DNA of 64,000 nucleotides from Escherichia phage SP22: the sequence record LC519489.1. One strand, given 5' to 3'. The number at the start of each line of letters is the position of its first letter. Positions within the stretch are counted from its first letter, which is position 1. A model generated the notes under the pieces. That model searched no databases. It saw only the letters and a program-made list of their open reading frames with translations, and had not been told where the DNA came from. Below, in pieces: positions 3,573 to 61,628 of this stretch. The translations under genes and the position numbers were made by a program.

Positions 3573-3600
3573 AGGCTGCTTCGGCGGCCTTTTTTATTTG
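3573..3600 (+). terminator. rho-independent terminator
   Basis: stem aggctgc/gcggcct with ttcg tetraloop followed by tttttt. Confidence 0.7.
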
Positions 3601-3656
3601 TATTTTGTGCAGAGTGCTGTATAATTGTTGTCACGATAAACTAAACAGGAGAACCA

Positions 3657-4205
3657 ATGAAGAAATTGATTCTAGGTTTGTGCTTAATGTTTACAGCACA
3701 CTTATCTTATGCAGTTGACTGCCCAGAGCTATCAATTAGCCAAAAAGTGAACATGTTAAAAGCTTACCAGTATGGTGAGAATAACATGGGTAAAGGTTGG
3801 GGTATCACTCTAGCAGCTATAGCCTTACAAGAGTCAGAGTTAGGTCTGAAGGTAGAAAATAAAAAGACCCATGACTATGGTATCTTCCAGAATCACTTGA
3901 AGACTGTTGTAAAGCGTAACAAAATTAGTCCTAATGTTGCTAAAAAGAAACTCTTAAAAGATTTTGACTATGCTGCGAAGGAAACGCACAAAGAACTTGA
4001 GTTTTGGACAAAGGTGCATGGTCAGCCAAAGTCAAAGAAGACTTTACAAAAAGTTTTAGCATCATATAATGCTGGGTATTCGTACAGAATCCCTAAAGCT
4101 AAGAAGTATTCTCAAGATGTCTATAACAACATGAAAGTTATTGCTCAATGTGAATTTGCAACAAACATTTCTAAGGTAAACCATGAAAAAATTAAAAAAG
4201 TCTGA
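3657..4205 (+). CDS. secreted protein with lytic-transglycosylase-like (SLT/lysozyme-like) motif
   Basis: N-terminal signal peptide MKKLILGLCLMFTAHLSYA; QESELG...YGIFQ resembles the SLT catalytic-Glu region; SD aggag. Confidence 0.4.
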   Translation: MKKLILGLCLMFTAHLSYAVDCPELSISQKVNMLKAYQYGENNMGKGWGITLAAIALQESELGLKVENKKTHDYGIFQNHLKTVVKRNKISPNVAKKKLLKDFDYAAKETHKELEFWTKVHGQPKSKKTLQKVLASYNAGYSYRIPKAKKYSQDVYNNMKVIAQCEFATNISKVNHEKIKKV

Positions 4206-4878
4206 TGAAGTCCTGTGCCACGCTTATGACTTACATCCTCATGAGTTAGGTCTTGATTCCTGTGTATGGACTCCAGAACAGTGCAGAGATTTTGAAGACA
4301 CTGCAAGAGAGGTTGTATGTTCACTTGAAGAGTTCCACACATCAGAACCCATTGTGAACGTTGTGGACAAAGAGACTGGACAAACTATAGGTGTAAGGCG
4401 TGATAGTTTAGTGATAGTCAATAAAGACCTTGTAGAAAAAGGTAACCTCATCTTAGCAGATATTGATGGTGTTCTTACAAATTTTAATCACGAAGATTGC
4501 TCAACGGAATTGACTGATGGGTCATTCTCACAGTACACTAATCTTCTTGATTCTGTAAGAGCAAAACCAACATATGTTTTCAACATTATTGATGCAATTG
4601 CAAATCATGCAGCAGTTGGACTCTTGACAGCAAGAGGTGAATCTCAGAGAATACCTACTGAGATGTTTTTAAGGCACAATATAGAGCATGATTACTTGCT
4701 TTTTATGCGTGGTTTTGGAACTAACTCTATAAGTGCAGAAAGTTTGAAAGTGAGGATGATTCAGTCTTGCATTCTTCCTTACTTTAATATAGTATGCTTT
4801 ATAGAAGATACAGAGAAGAATGTTCAGAAGGTAAACAGAATCCTTCCACACATTAAAACCATGTTAGTTAAACATTGA
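4183..4878 (+). CDS. putative HAD-family hydrolase (possible nucleotidase)
   Basis: HAD motif-I-like LADIDGVLT, LLTARG motif II candidate; start overlaps upstream gene. Confidence 0.3.
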   Translation: MKKLKKSDEVLCHAYDLHPHELGLDSCVWTPEQCRDFEDTAREVVCSLEEFHTSEPIVNVVDKETGQTIGVRRDSLVIVNKDLVEKGNLILADIDGVLTNFNHEDCSTELTDGSFSQYTNLLDSVRAKPTYVFNIIDAIANHAAVGLLTARGESQRIPTEMFLRHNIEHDYLLFMRGFGTNSISAESLKVRMIQSCILPYFNIVCFIEDTEKNVQKVNRILPHIKTMLVKH

Positions 4879-4889
4879 GAGAAGAACTT

Positions 4890-5354
4890 ATGAACAATAT
4901 CATTACGGTAGCACTGGACGATACGGCAAACAAATCTGAAGTAGTTCGTAAAATGATTCAAGGTAACTTTGAAGGTAAAATTTTCCGTGCTGTTAATGTA
5001 AAAGCTGATGGCAGCATTCGTGAATATCGTGCATTGTTGAACGTTAAGAAGCACGTAAAAGGTGTTGGTTCAACGACTGCACACAAAGAAAACCTGATGA
5101 CTATCTATGATATGGGTAAGGCTTCAGAGTTAGGTGCTGAAGGTATCGTTAAAGAAGGTGCTCCGTATCGCTCTTTCAATCTGGAAACTACCCTTATGCT
5201 TTCCTTTACAAGTGGTTCCAAAACAATCACTTATCTCTTTACTGATGCTGCAACGGTATCTGCTATTAAGGATAGCACTGTCAAAGCTGGCGTAGTTGCT
5301 GCTGCAAAAGCTTCTTCGATGGCTGCAAATATCCTTGCTAAAGTCCTCGGTTAA
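4890..5354 (+). CDS. hypothetical protein (start moved to ATG with SD gagagaag; track ORF began at TTG 4875)
   Basis: ORF track plus RBS inspection. Confidence 0.45.
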   Translation: MNNIITVALDDTANKSEVVRKMIQGNFEGKIFRAVNVKADGSIREYRALLNVKKHVKGVGSTTAHKENLMTIYDMGKASELGAEGIVKEGAPYRSFNLETTLMLSFTSGSKTITYLFTDAATVSAIKDSTVKAGVVAAAKASSMAANILAKVLG

Positions 5355-5367
5355 GGTTAAGATACAG

Positions 5368-5390
5368 GCTCCTTCGGGAGCCTTTTTCAT
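5368..5390 (+). terminator. rho-independent terminator
   Basis: ggctccttcgggagcc hairpin + ttttt. Confidence 0.7.
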
Positions 5391-5406
5391 TTCAGGAGAT
5401 TGTTAA

Positions 5407-5754
5407 ATGACATTTAAAGAGTTCTGTCAAGCTACTTTCATAGTTGTTTTCTTAGTTGGGGCAGGTGTCTGGGGAGGATACTCTTACAGAGACTACCAAG
5501 TTGCTGAAACTGAGCTAAACAATGAGAAGCTGATAAGTGTTGCTAAAGATGCTTATCAGGAAGGATTAGCTACACTGAGCACCAATTACAAAAATGATTT
5601 GAAAGATGTGCTTGCTAAGAATAAGCACACAAAAGAGGTACTAACGTATGAAAAAACTAAGCCAGAGTTTTATAATGTTTGTGTTACTGATAATTATGTC
5701 AGGGTGTTCAACGAACAAAGTGAACAGTACATTCAAAAACTCCCAAGTAAGTGA
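5407..5754 (+). CDS. membrane protein with single N-terminal TM helix (i-spanin-like or exclusion protein candidate)
   Basis: hydrophobic segment FIVVFLVGAGVWGG near N-terminus; SD caggag; 3' end overlapped by lipoprotein ORF in another frame. Confidence 0.4.
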   Translation: MTFKEFCQATFIVVFLVGAGVWGGYSYRDYQVAETELNNEKLISVAKDAYQEGLATLSTNYKNDLKDVLAKNKHTKEVLTYEKTKPEFYNVCVTDNYVRVFNEQSEQYIQKLPSK

Positions 5755-5917
5755 GAGTGACAAGTACACTCAAGAAGAATCACGGTATATCATCAAAGGT
5801 AACACAGGCAGTGATGTAGCAGCAGCACTTGAGTTCTACCGTGACGGCTTTTACCAGTGTACAATTAAAGCTAATAACCTTATTGACATGATTTTATTAG
5901 GGAATAAGCAGCAATGA
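5648..5917 (+). CDS. putative lipoprotein (o-spanin-like or Llp/Cor-like exclusion lipoprotein candidate)
   Basis: lipobox LLIIMSG-C after basic N-terminus; ORF overlaps 3' end of preceding TM-protein gene by about 107 nt in a different frame. Confidence 0.4.
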   Translation: MKKLSQSFIMFVLLIIMSGCSTNKVNSTFKNSQVSESDKYTQEESRYIIKGNTGSDVAAALEFYRDGFYQCTIKANNLIDMILLGNKQQ

Positions 5918-6183
5918 CAGAGAATCAAGACACTTTCTATGTAGAAGGTTACTTACTGTTGCCACGACCAAAAGAAACTTATATGCGAATTGATTTCTTA
6001 CCAACCATTATGGATAATGTGATGTGTCATATCTTTATGCAAGGTGTCACAGCACAGCTTAAGCATGTTGGTAAAGATTGCAAAATAAAGGTTGACACTC
6101 ATCCAGAAATCAAAGAGAATCACTACACATGGTTCTTACCAGATTCTAAAGAAATCTTAGCAGTTCTTAAAACGAGGAAGTAA
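5914..6183 (+). CDS. hypothetical protein
   Basis: ORF track, start overlaps upstream stop. Confidence 0.4.
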   Translation: MTENQDTFYVEGYLLLPRPKETYMRIDFLPTIMDNVMCHIFMQGVTAQLKHVGKDCKIKVDTHPEIKENHYTWFLPDSKEILAVLKTRK

Positions 6184-6185
6184 CT

Positions 6186-6509
6186 ATGCAGATTAATGGA
6201 AGAGACTTTGTAGCCGTTTACTACGAGAAAGATAAAGAAGTTGGCGTAGCGCAAGTATCTTATGGCAATGGTGGGTGGCTATATGGAACAATCGCAGTAG
6301 TTGGAACGAGAAGTGATACAAAAACTTTTAAAGATTGTGTTGACCTTCTTGAAGAATCCATTCAGAATCATTGGTGTCTGATATGGATGACTGACAACGA
6401 AGTGATAGAACGCTTCAAAAAGGTTGATATCAACATTGATAGTATTGAGCATGTTGATTTATATGAGCTAACTGAGAAGGTAAATTATGAAAGCTCTAGA
6501 GGTAATTGA
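6186..6509 (+). CDS. hypothetical protein
   Basis: ORF with SD gaggaag. Confidence 0.45.
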   Translation: MQINGRDFVAVYYEKDKEVGVAQVSYGNGGWLYGTIAVVGTRSDTKTFKDCVDLLEESIQNHWCLIWMTDNEVIERFKKVDINIDSIEHVDLYELTEKVNYESSRGN

Positions 6510-6714
6510 TAAAGATACTGGAGAAGTCGTATCTGCATGTGTTTTCATGAGCGATGACACAGTAATACCGTTTTACAATCTTGATGGTTTTAGTTTTACA
6601 GGGATAACTCCAGAAGAATATTTTGAAGACCTTACCTTTGCCAGAATTTCTATAGATACATTCTATAAATGCTTCTATGATGAAGGTAAAGAATTACGAG
6701 AAACTGAACTATAA
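6487..6714 (+). CDS. hypothetical acidic small protein
   Basis: ORF track. Confidence 0.4.
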   Translation: MKALEVIDKDTGEVVSACVFMSDDTVIPFYNLDGFSFTGITPEEYFEDLTFARISIDTFYKCFYDEGKELRETEL

Positions 6715-6927: not shown

Positions 6928-7713
6928 ATGGGTATTGTAAAAATAATCAATGGTGATATCTTTGCCGCATTTGATAAAGGTAAGTTTGACATCATCGGTC
7001 ACGGTTGCAACTGTATGAATTTAATGGGTGCAGGTATCGCTGACAAGATTTCTAAACTTTACCCAAAAGCATATGAGACCGATACAGAAGTTTATCTATA
7101 TGCAGGTGGTATAGGACACAAACCCTGTGAAAATTTACTGGGTAATTTCTCTGTAGCACGTTTAAAACAAGGTCGTATAGCTAACCTTTACACTCAGCTT
7201 AAGACTGGTAAAGATGCCCGATACAGTGCTTTAGAGTCATCTTTGAAACAGCTTAACAGATACTGTGAAGTTAATCAGTTGAGGAAAGTTGGTTTACCTA
7301 TGATTGGTGCAGGTATCGGTGGGTTGGACCCTCAAGCCGTCACAGTTATCATCAATCAGGTGATGAAGAGTGTAGATGTTTATCTATATGTCTATGAAGG
7401 AGAGATGTACCACAAGTTACGCTCAGGTTGGAATAACTACTGTGAACCAGAATACTTTGCAGGTGTAGTAACGTTCAAAGATGATACAGTTACCCTCTTC
7501 AGACGAAGAAAAGGTAAGATACATCAAAGTAACCCTCCGGTTGAGAAGATGTCTCTAAGTAACGCTCTAGTTACCCACCTGTCGAAGAGCAATCACAGGA
7601 TAGCCGTAACATTTGGCAGTGATGCAGATACATATATTTATGCAAGAACTGATGAGGATATCGAGACGGTCTTCTCTTCACCGGAAGTTACCTTCTTAGA
7701 CGCAAAGAACTAA
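6928..7713 (+). CDS. macro-domain-like protein (ADP-ribose binding/processing fold)
   Basis: INGDIF...DIIGHGCNCMNLMGAGIA and LPMIGAGIGGL resemble macro-domain Gly-rich motifs; 261 aa. Confidence 0.45.
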   Translation: MGIVKIINGDIFAAFDKGKFDIIGHGCNCMNLMGAGIADKISKLYPKAYETDTEVYLYAGGIGHKPCENLLGNFSVARLKQGRIANLYTQLKTGKDARYSALESSLKQLNRYCEVNQLRKVGLPMIGAGIGGLDPQAVTVIINQVMKSVDVYLYVYEGEMYHKLRSGWNNYCEPEYFAGVVTFKDDTVTLFRRRKGKIHQSNPPVEKMSLSNALVTHLSKSNHRIAVTFGSDADTYIYARTDEDIETVFSSPEVTFLDAKN

Positions 7714-7745
7714 GAAACTCTGTATAATATTCACAATAGACTAAG

Positions 7746-7790
7746 CCTTCCTTATCTGGTAAATTTTTCAGGTAAGGAGGGCTTTTTCAT
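7746..7790 (+). terminator. imperfect hairpin + U-run after macro-domain gene
   Basis: ccttcctta...taaggagg inverted repeat followed by gcttttt. Confidence 0.4.
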
Positions 7791-55342: not shown

Positions 55343-55540
55343 ATGCCTACAATCCTAGCAATTCTTCTAAAAAATCTAGGTAGCTTCTTCTGGAAACTCG
55401 TTTTATCCCTTCTAAGTGAATACATGATTGAGAAAGTGTTCTTCAGACTTGCAAGATATCTTGCGAGTAAAACAGATACACCTATTGATGATGAGTTCGT
55501 AGATAACTTAGAAAAAGCTTTTAAGGGGGAGAATAAATGA
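55343..55540 (+). CDS. small membrane-associated protein
   Basis: hydrophobic N-terminus; ORF track. Confidence 0.3.
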   Translation: MPTILAILLKNLGSFFWKLVLSLLSEYMIEKVFFRLARYLASKTDTPIDDEFVDNLEKAFKGENK

Positions 55541-55908
55541 AGTGGCTAGAGGAAGCTTTTAAAAATAATATTGGTGCAATTGTAGTTGGTATTTTTAGTG
55601 TTATTGGGATGTATACCACCATGCAAGTTTCGGATGGTAAGCAAGAAGTGTCTGTCACAACAAAGTTACAACAGCTAGATAATTATTCCAAAAGTAACTA
55701 TTCAGCTATTCGTGATTTACAGTCTGACATGAGACTGATTCAGCTAGGGATGGAGAACCAGAAAGTTCAGTTAGAGAATGTTAAGGGTGAGAATGCAAAA
55801 CTTACCAAAACTCTTGATAAATTCTCTGACAGTGTGAACAATCTGGCTCAATCAGTATCAGCCTTGCAAGCTATTACTGAAAAGAACACAAAGAATACTG
55901 AAAAATAA
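55537..55908 (+). CDS. membrane-anchored coiled-coil protein (N-terminal TM helix)
   Basis: IGAIVVGIFSVIGMY hydrophobic segment then heptad-like Q/L/N-rich sequence. Confidence 0.35.
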   Translation: MKWLEEAFKNNIGAIVVGIFSVIGMYTTMQVSDGKQEVSVTTKLQQLDNYSKSNYSAIRDLQSDMRLIQLGMENQKVQLENVKGENAKLTKTLDKFSDSVNNLAQSVSALQAITEKNTKNTEK

Positions 55909-61157: not shown

Positions 61158-61459
61158 TTTCTCTTACCACCAATCTCTACGTCGATAACCTGAACATCAC
61201 CAGCAACATCAAACTTATGGATGATGCTTTCCACAGTGTAAGTCCAACCCTCGATGCGAACCAACTCACCTTCTCGTGGGACGATTGGGTTACGTTGAGC
61301 TACGGTTGTAGTGGAGTGAACAACATCATAACAATAGATATAGTTTACTAGGACTTCCATCGTGAAAACCTCACTCAATAACCGTAGTGTGTGATTGACC
61401 ATTTTTCCCATAACTATAAGATGTTGTTGTTTGAGAGTTTGGACATCTGACAACAACAA
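61154..61459 (-). CDS. hypothetical protein
   Basis: ORF track. Confidence 0.4.
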   Translation of the reverse strand: MLLSDVQTLKQQHLIVMGKMVNHTLRLLSEVFTMEVLVNYIYCYDVVHSTTTVAQRNPIVPREGELVRIEGWTYTVESIIHKFDVAGDVQVIDVEIGGKRK

Positions 61460-61628
61460 TATCTCTGCTTATGGCATCACCATGTAACTTATAGACTTTG
61501 CAATCTTGCATCTCTGGTGGGAGGCTATAAGAAGCGTTTTTGTCCTCGTAAGAGGGGTTGCAGCCAGATAGAAAAATTACTCCAAGTGCAACCATTGCTT
61601 TCACACAACTCTTAACCTTATTGTTCAC
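61371..61628 (-). CDS. putative lipoprotein
   Basis: signal peptide + lipobox FLSG-C. Confidence 0.4.
   Translation of the reverse strand: MNNKVKSCVKAMVALGVIFLSGCNPSYEDKNASYSLPPEMQDCKVYKLHGDAISRDIVVVRCPNSQTTTSYSYGKNGQSHTTVIE

Follow-up and report, generated by a model that had tools for sequence, protein, structure and literature searches.

In the window, by which we mean the whole 64-kb stretch of phage DNA analysed here, two overlapping genes on the plus strand have the layout of a two-component spanin. The upstream gene (5407-5754), a putative i-spanin gene, encodes a 115-aa protein which, based on its ATG-initiated ORF, a match to phrog_1152, its counterparts in SpaninDB and AF2 modelling, appears to be a type II inner-membrane protein whose helical domain lies in the periplasm. 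The downstream gene (5648-5917), a putative o-spanin gene, encodes an 89-aa prolipoprotein predicted to mature to a 70-aa outer-membrane lipoprotein, as judged from its own ATG-initiated ORF, conservation, SpaninDB and a link to LysC. Scanning the whole 115-aa protein for transmembrane (TM) segments revealed a single hydrophobic segment at residues 6-24 (5422-5478, plus strand; Kyte-Doolittle window score 1.73; AF2 helix with a pLDDT of about 80), in agreement with the one N-terminal TM helix proposed in a preliminary description of this DNA. Each gene is preceded on the plus strand by a Shine-Dalgarno (SD) sequence with the ATG 8 nt downstream: AGGAG (5394-5398) for the i-spanin gene, for which SpaninDB lists the same SD, and GAGGT (5635-5639), which lies within the i-spanin coding sequence, for the o-spanin gene, identical to that in the SpaninDB row for phage Mushroom.

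Relative to the i-spanin gene, its partner is read in the +1 frame, as seen in both the ORF list and the sequence. The two share 107 nt (5648-5754, plus strand), where i-spanin residues 81-115 lie over the first 36 o-spanin codons and where codon-position variability points to dual coding. Within this overlap, the conserved i-spanin motif YEKTKPxFYNVC...FNE coincides with the signal peptide, lipobox and start of the mature chain of the o-spanin. The 89-aa protein begins with MKKLSQSFIMFVLLIIMSG|CST, comprising a basic n-region (MKK), a hydrophobic core and the lipobox IMSG|C with Cys20. The signal peptidase II signal sequence predicted from this sequence by a PROSITE-like rule is encoded at 5648-5707 on the plus strand, with the Cys20 codon at 5705-5707. 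Residue +2 of the mature chain is Ser, and there is no Asp inner-membrane retention signal. When all ORFs of at least 50 aa in the six frames of the 64-kb window were scanned with this lipoprotein rule, just three fitted it, the 89-aa ORF among them, and its lipobox match is therefore not a chance one. A lipoprotein prediction had been suggested beforehand as a check, and its outcome, together with the 107-nt overlap, bears out the earlier account of a signal peptide and lipobox encoded in another frame over the 3' end of the membrane-protein gene. Beyond the cysteine presumed to be lipidated, each protein has a sole periplasmic cysteine: Cys92 of the i-spanin (codon 5680-5682, plus strand), which is invariant in alignments of 7 and 34 sequences, and Cys71 of the o-spanin (codon 5858-5860, plus strand), which is invariant in close relatives.

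Under the criteria of Summer et al. 2007 and Kongari et al. 2018, two-component spanins are reportedly recognised by a set of features that can be read off at this locus. The i-spanin has a single N-terminal TM domain and a predicted periplasmic C-terminal domain that is largely helical, and the o-spanin has a signal peptidase II signal, a lipobox cysteine and no retention residue at +2. The i-spanin gene comes first with the o-spanin gene as its immediate neighbour and, of the possible embedded, overlapped and separated arrangements, theirs is the overlapped one. Purifying selection is detectable in both frames, and the expected presence of at least one periplasmic cysteine for homotypic intermolecular disulfides has its counterpart, at the sequence level, in the invariant Cys92 and Cys71.

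Selection on the two frames was assessed in 29 related IMG/VR loci, with i-spanins 75-100% identical to that of the window and 28 distinct sequences among them. The 89-aa ORF was intact in 29/29 loci, always 89 aa long and with its start kept, and the lipobox ([TIL][MI]SGC) and Cys71 were likewise retained in 29/29. Across the 28 sequences, sites variable at codon positions 1, 2 and 3 amounted to 27, 18 and 74% in the i-only part (i frame) and to 28, 15 and 84% in the o-only part (163 nt, o frame). In the overlap, the corresponding values in the i frame were 26, 19 and 28%: the excess of third-position changes was gone in both frames, and the overall share of variable sites fell from about 40% to 24%. 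Compared with one of the loci (L031), dN/dS was 0.16 for the i-only and about 0.07 for the o-only segment, and compared with another (L026) it was 0.03 for the i-only segment, while wrong-frame controls gave 0.8-3.9. The vanished third-position excess and the reduced variability in the overlap indicate two translated frames; such a codon-position pattern is the expected signature of two frames that are both translated and selected, and is a strong argument against single-frame use. Translation of only one of the overlapping frames, named beforehand as an outcome that would refute the spanin reading, thus does not agree with the coding constraint seen in both frames of the 28 sequences. We infer that o-spanin translation starts independently, at the SD and ATG which lie within the i-spanin gene.

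AF2 monomer models of both proteins were of low confidence (pLDDT 63 each), and only their secondary structure was used. At this low confidence, the i-spanin model consists of a helix at residues 3-79, a loop at 80-94 and a second helix at 95-111. The long helix would comprise the TM domain and, continuous with it, about 55 residues of periplasmic helix, and the loop would carry the invariant motif and Cys92. In the o-spanin model, of equally low confidence, the signal helix is followed by a disordered linker (21-43), and two further helices (54-75 and 78-85) make up the region around Cys71. Simple geometry suggests that the i-spanin helix and an extended o-spanin linker could together bridge a periplasm of about 20-25 nm.

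The region is 99.1% identical at the DNA level to Escherichia phage wV8 and to the O157 typing phages 8, 11 and 12, placing the window in Felixounavirus, and the 257 records matching it are nearly all from Felix O1-like phages of enterobacteria. Many GenBank records carry i-spanin and o-spanin annotations for the two genes, among them those of radambza, GEC_vB_B1, Mushroom, Moogle and JohannRWettstein. In SpaninDB, both wV8 and Felix O1 are listed as having overlapped ('ovl') two-component spanins of 115 and 89 aa with a 107-nt overlap, at 5332-5680 (i-spanin) and 5573-5843 (o-spanin) in wV8 (supplementary tables of Kongari et al. 2018, PMC6139136). The Mushroom row of the same resource, which is marked 'JH2', gives the SDs AGGAG and GAGGT, a 19-aa signal, the lipobox IMSG, an i-spanin periplasmic domain of 88 aa starting at R28, a mature o-spanin of 70 aa and one periplasmic cysteine per subunit, and the coiled-coil table of SpaninDB has no coiled-coil segment for the i-spanins of Felix O1 and wV8 (PMC6139136). 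The genome papers of Moogle and Mushroom make the same overlapped-spanin call, the latter describing the lysis system as otherwise T4-like. Compared with the wV8, Felix O1 and Mushroom entries, the genes of the window are the same and their products differ by a few residues, nothing substantial. The overlapped i-spanin/o-spanin architecture recognised in the preliminary description therefore matches both SpaninDB and GenBank; as far as bioinformatics goes, the pair was known and curated before, and the finding is real but ordinary. Our literature search found no experimental test of this spanin pair or of any member of its family. In many public records and metagenome gene calls, the o-spanin start is placed at Met17 or later, which removes the signal peptide.

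Searches with tblastn revealed homologues of both proteins, always together, in other Ounavirinae (Hafnia phages, Erwinia Ea21-4-like phages and Pectobacterium phage Wc4-1) and also in the unrelated phiEco32-like podophages and in siphophage 9NA. Seven diverged pairs were examined, and each has its o-spanin gene in the +1 frame, with the start codon falling within the [Y/H/R/N]-E-K motif of the i-spanin, ..TAT GAA AAA.. being read as ATG AAA AA. in the second frame. That the same register recurs in seven diverged pairs means that the overlap is ancient. Through it, the most conserved part of the i-spanin shares its DNA with the o-spanin signal peptide, which is a tolerant sequence. Residues invariant throughout the family are G24, E82, F88, C92 and N102 of the i-spanin (34-sequence alignment) and C20, G54, C71, N76 and L78 of the o-spanin. 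Cys20 is invariant in 89 representatives of the o-spanin family, and at least 90% of the members of the wider family have Cys71. A second periplasmic cysteine, aligned to Ser37 of the window protein, likewise occurs in at least 90% of them but has been lost in the Ounavirinae branch.

Two of these relatives place the pair beside lysis genes. In phage 9NA it directly follows a holin gene (phrog_24402), an endolysin gene (phrog_465) and a gene for a small membrane protein, and in the Ounavirinae phage Wc4-1 it directly follows an endolysin gene whose product is 44% identical to the window endolysin. The 9NA protein gp59 and the unannotated lipoprotein ORF overlapping its gene are true homologues of the two subunits (pairwise E values of 3e-7 and 8e-11), as are gp39 and gp38 of phiEco32, and both pairs use the same +1 register. 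They differ from the window in that the o-spanins of 9NA and phiEco32 retain the second periplasmic cysteine and in that the 9NA pair closes a canonical holin-endolysin cassette.

In order to assign the two proteins to named families, we compared them with several profile collections. In PHROGs, the i-spanin matched phrog_1152 ('Rz-like spanin', E=1.7e-41), and the o-spanin matched phrog_4180, which has no assigned function, and weakly phrog_456 ('Rz-like spanin', E=2.4e-4). Neither protein reached a Pfam threshold; NCBIfam matches covered only the generic lipoprotein signal, far below cut-offs, PADLOC returned no matches, and PDB sequence searches with both proteins yielded no significant relative. 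Searching a large protein collection with the single o-spanin sequence recovered close relatives only, and queries built from alignments reached further: the o-spanin family profile retrieved 118 proteins, nearly all short, at E<=0.001 from 1.84 billion representative proteins. The window protein and 88 of the profile hits were scanned against Pfam, and 49 of these 89 sequences matched PF23793 ('LysC, Rz1-like lysis system protein') at E<=0.001, with no other Pfam family found. The window o-spanin itself gave no match to the PF23793 HMM even at E<=10, and its relatives scored 27.5 bits (P0043) and 19.8 bits (9NA o-spanin) relative to a gathering threshold of 27 bits. The 89-sequence profile aligned to LysC of phage P2 with a probability of 81.5%, matching the lipobox cysteine and the C-terminal cysteine; smaller alignments of 7 sequences were not significant in hhalign comparisons with P2 LysC and LysB, and the i-spanin showed no convincing similarity to LysB (hhalign probability 3.6%). 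The family profile places the o-spanin in the LysC (Rz1-like) superfamily, as a divergent member that itself falls below the Pfam threshold. P2 LysB/LysC is also the archetype of the overlapped architecture, with an o-spanin gene that starts inside and ends beyond the i-spanin gene as it does here. Unlike in the window, the P2 pair lies inside a lysis cassette, and its annotation reads 'nonessential; affects timing of lysis'.

The pair opens a block of seven plus-strand genes that ends at a terminator at 7743-7784. Directly upstream of the i-spanin gene, a pattern scan identified a terminator-like hairpin followed by a T run (5366-5383, plus strand), annotated as a rho-independent terminator in wV8. 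Further upstream lie rIIA, rIIB, an SLT-like gene encoding a signal peptide (3657-4205), a polynucleotide kinase gene and a hypothetical gene. The pair had been described as standing next to this transglycosylase-like gene, which is in fact separated from it by two genes and one terminator. Elsewhere in the window, a gene on the minus strand (20774-21238), 15 kb from the pair, encodes a soluble lysozyme-type endolysin (phrog_7, E=3.7e-57; 'endolysin' in relatives). A putative holin gene on the plus strand (55537-55908) encodes a 123-aa protein with one N-terminal TM segment, as indicated by a TM scan and the annotation of relatives. Its homologues in Moogle, Mordin, radambza, SUSP2 and other phages are annotated as holin or putative holin. 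PHROGs identified no holin in the window and assigned no function to this gene, which makes the holin call an annotation-based one.

In the window, the spanin pair is linked neither to the endolysin gene nor to the putative holin gene, in contrast to the homologous pairs of 9NA and Wc4-1. Scattered lysis genes are, however, described in the literature as typical of Felix O1-like phages, and those of T4 are likewise scattered (Kongari et al. 2018, PMC6139136). The preliminary description was thus right that the pair is far from the endolysin gene, which is also on the other strand, but its conclusion that the role of the pair is therefore open does not follow, as such scattering is usual in these phages and the distance is no real objection.

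Comparison with the two best-studied systems showed resemblance in architecture. Like lambda Rz/Rz1, the window pair combines a type II inner-membrane protein with an outer-membrane lipoprotein encoded in the +1 frame, has periplasmic cysteines available for intermolecular disulfides and shows a helix-linker-helix layout in its i-spanin. In contrast to the overlapped genes of the window, the lambda genes are embedded; the window i-spanin is shorter than that of lambda (115 versus 153 aa) and the mature o-spanin longer (70 versus 40 aa). The mature window o-spanin has no proline and has predicted C-terminal helices, whereas lambda Rz1 is proline-rich, has no secondary structure and contains a penta-proline stretch that is functionally critical (Kongari et al. 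2018, PMC6139136). Neither a proline-rich region nor a penta-proline stretch nor a lack of secondary structure was found in the window o-spanin, and no sequence similarity to lambda Rz/Rz1 was detected.

The T4 spanins PseT.3 and PseT.2 are of similar size (117 and 83 aa; Kongari et al. 2018, PMC6139136), and PseT.2 resembles the window o-spanin in lacking a proline-rich region and in its C-terminal helix, a predicted one in the window protein. In T4, too, the spanin genes are located away from the holin and endolysin genes and close to the polynucleotide kinase gene. They differ from the window genes in being separated rather than overlapped, in their periplasmic cysteines (0+2 for i- and o-spanin in T4 versus 1+1 in the window) and in a reversed order relative to the kinase gene. 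The nearness to the kinase gene shared by T4 and the window is a mere curiosity. BLASTP against the T4 proteins gave E=18 for the i-spanin and E=0.038 for the o-spanin, with the signal peptide alone aligned in the latter case. Membership in the PseT.3/PseT.2 families was rejected, there being no similarity beyond the signal peptide.

Gene anatomy, selection in two frames, homology and the linkage to lysis genes in relatives together support the reading of the pair as the two-component spanin of a Felix O1-like myophage, to which we assign a probability of roughly 90%. By analogy with the lambda and T4 paradigms, from which we infer lipidation, complex formation, disulfides and membrane fusion, the pair most likely disrupts the outer membrane of the host as infection ends. 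An N-terminal helix would hold the 115-aa i-spanin in the inner membrane, from which its long alpha-helix and conserved C-terminal domain (EK..F.N.C..Y..FN, including Cys92) would project into the periplasm. The 89-aa o-spanin would be exported by Sec, lipidated on Cys20 and cleaved by signal peptidase II. From the Ser at +2, it is predicted that Lol would deliver the protein to the outer membrane, where it would sit in the inner leaflet. In the mature 70-aa protein, a flexible linker devoid of proline would lead into the conserved, helical C-terminal region that contains Cys71. Binding between the C-terminal domains of both subunits would then create a complex across the periplasm and through the peptidoglycan mesh, the complexes probably being disulfide-linked dimers via Cys92 and Cys71. 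Once the putative holin had released the endolysin and the wall had been degraded, the complexes would be free to move, collapse and fuse the inner and outer membranes, completing lysis.

Homotypic disulfides are described for lambda and T4, and the disulfide requirement of spanins is discussed by Kongari et al. (2018, PMC6139136), with which one invariant periplasmic cysteine in each subunit agrees. The single invariant cysteine in the presumed contact domain of each subunit, together with the lost second cysteine of the o-spanin, makes a heterotypic disulfide conceivable here. An i-o disulfide forming a covalent tether from inner to outer membrane, or a proline-free helical o-spanin that fuses membranes by a somewhat different conformational route, is in our estimate an unlikely variant.

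Several observations were counted against the spanin reading: the unreached Pfam thresholds, the missing similarity to PseT.3/PseT.2, the absence of proline, the absence of a listed coiled coil and the low-confidence AF2 models, as well as the lack of a lysis cassette in the window and the position of the pair after a terminator in an early-looking region by rIIA/rIIB.

Proximity to rIIA/rIIB and to the SLT-like gene with its signal peptide also raises the question of whether the two proteins might form an envelope-spanning complex with another purpose, for instance to time or inhibit lysis in concert with rIIA/rIIB or to remodel the envelope with the exported SLT-like enzyme. The P2 lysB/lysC annotation as nonessential and affecting lysis timing could be read in the same way, as could the absence of the proline-rich and coiled-coil features of lambda Rz/Rz1. 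Spanin defects, however, look nonessential under laboratory conditions in both lambda and T4, and the P2 annotation is therefore compatible with spanin function and no argument against it. The T4 spanins also lack these lambda features and are also encoded away from the holin and endolysin genes, and the family adjoins endolysin genes in 9NA and Wc4-1, which speaks against a non-lytic role. With nothing specific in its favour, we regard such a role as very unlikely.

The preliminary description had further suggested receptor blocking or superinfection exclusion by the lipoprotein. It would then act in the manner of T5 Llp, Cor or TP-J34 Ltp, and the overlapping membrane protein would be unrelated to lysis. 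A small lipoprotein predicted to be directed to the outer membrane and encoded in an early-looking region far from the endolysin gene would suit such a function, and the best PDB match was indeed an Ltp-like 'host cell surface-exposed lipoprotein' (4eqq), at a non-significant E value of 0.14. No significant match to exclusion families was, however, found in PHROGs or PADLOC, and in phages that differ in host and receptor, the lipoprotein gene invariably overlaps that of the same partner in an unchanged register. The lysis-cassette setting of the homologous pairs in 9NA and Wc4-1 and the position of the o-spanin in the LysC/Rz1-like superfamily argue against it as well, and a stand-alone lipoprotein gene elsewhere in the window (61371-61628) is a better candidate for such a role. 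The proposal is thus unsupported, and we consider it highly improbable. Finally, use of a single frame, with the 89-aa ORF open by chance across the 3'-terminal part of the 115-aa gene and the spacer downstream of it, might explain why several GenBank records leave this ORF unannotated or 'hypothetical' and why its start differs between gene callers, but a spurious ORF is excluded by the selection data, above all the third-position variability and low dN/dS of the o-only 163 nt, and is at odds with a strong SD at the right spacing, with the rarity of lipoprotein signals in the window and with the retention of ORF, start, lipobox and Cys71 in all 29 loci and in relatives at 23-30% identity.

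The assignment as a spanin leaves the current understanding of phage lysis unchanged, and what novelty remains is at the level of the family: the conserved overlap register, the link to the LysC superfamily, the 1+1 arrangement of cysteines and the widespread misplacement of the o-spanin start in annotations. Its practical value lies in annotation quality, with the pair completing the inventory of lysis genes for a phage of the Felix O1-like group, which serves in the typing and biocontrol of Salmonella and E. coli. For spanin evolution, the family offers modest material, with a register fixed in distant phages, a pair relocated beside the endolysin gene in Wc4-1 and 9NA, membership in the LysC superfamily and one periplasmic cysteine in each subunit.

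The start of the o-spanin gene is frequently called too late (region 5648-5722), resulting in loss of the signal peptide, as seen in records MN850639 and MW006474 and in protein clusters P0009 and P0018. One mis-called start lies at Met17 and yields a 73-aa product (MSGCSTNK...), with 303 member sequences in one cluster, while further mis-called starts were found at Val25 and at another position still further downstream. In RefSeq wV8, the full-length ORF is labelled 'hypothetical protein'.

The neighbours of the spanin pair recur (window 4183-4878 and 6928-7713; related loci L033, L037 and L038). In Ounavirinae, a polynucleotide kinase gene lies upstream of the pair; the T4 spanins are likewise located two genes from pseT, but with the order reversed. 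Downstream of the pair comes a gene for a macro-domain-like 'phosphatase', separated from it by four small genes in the window and following it immediately in phiEco32 and the Erwinia phages.

A second ORF with a lipoprotein signal (MNNKVKSCVKAMVALGVIFLSGC|NPSYE) is present in the window at 61371-61628 on the minus strand, encoding 85 aa when read from a GTG start, or 77 aa. Its protein matches phrog_902, a function-unlabelled PHROG, and the ORF is conserved in Felixounavirus, with homologues in phages of Vibrio, Acinetobacter and Pectobacterium and in jumbo E. coli phages that are 32-40% identical. Because this lipoprotein gene is solitary, with no membrane-protein partner beside it, its product is a more plausible candidate than the o-spanin for an exclusion or envelope-modifying lipoprotein.

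The plus-strand gene at 3657-4205 encodes an SLT-like protein of 182 aa, which carries a Sec-type signal peptide (MKKLILGLCLMFTAHLSYA, predicted cleavage before VD) and lytic-transglycosylase-like motifs (QES, YGIFQ and SYNAGYSY). Comparison with Pfam SLT gave 19.2 bits, under the cut-off of 21.3, and no sequence relative was found in the PDB. The protein matched the function-unlabelled phrog_600, and its homologue is labelled 'putative lysin' in some records. The gene of this putative exported muralytic enzyme, which the phage would have as well as the holin-dependent lysozyme, adjoins rIIA/rIIB.

The putative holin (55537-55908, plus strand; 123 aa, one N-terminal TMD) is annotated as a holin in related phages, and its PHROG match, phrog_4038, carries no function. 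Relatives below 80% identity were few; they include a weak one from Hafnia phage Zyzzx, a putative holin with 26.5% identity. The holin call in Felix O1-like phages appears to be based on topology alone.

The spanin region (window 3600-6600) showed 99.1% identity to wV8, and for the endolysin/tail region (window 19500-22500) the phage collection gave no match above 94.6%. Judged by the identities of these two regions, the window looks mosaic.

The homologous spanin pair of Pectobacterium phage Wc4-1, a distant member of the Ounavirinae, lies immediately 3' of the orthologous endolysin gene, where the tail-gene block ends (1794-2776 of locus L040), with its o-spanin ORF lacking annotation. The pair has changed its genomic place in this phage. 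Together, Wc4-1 and the window provide a case of one subfamily in which lysis genes are both gathered and scattered.
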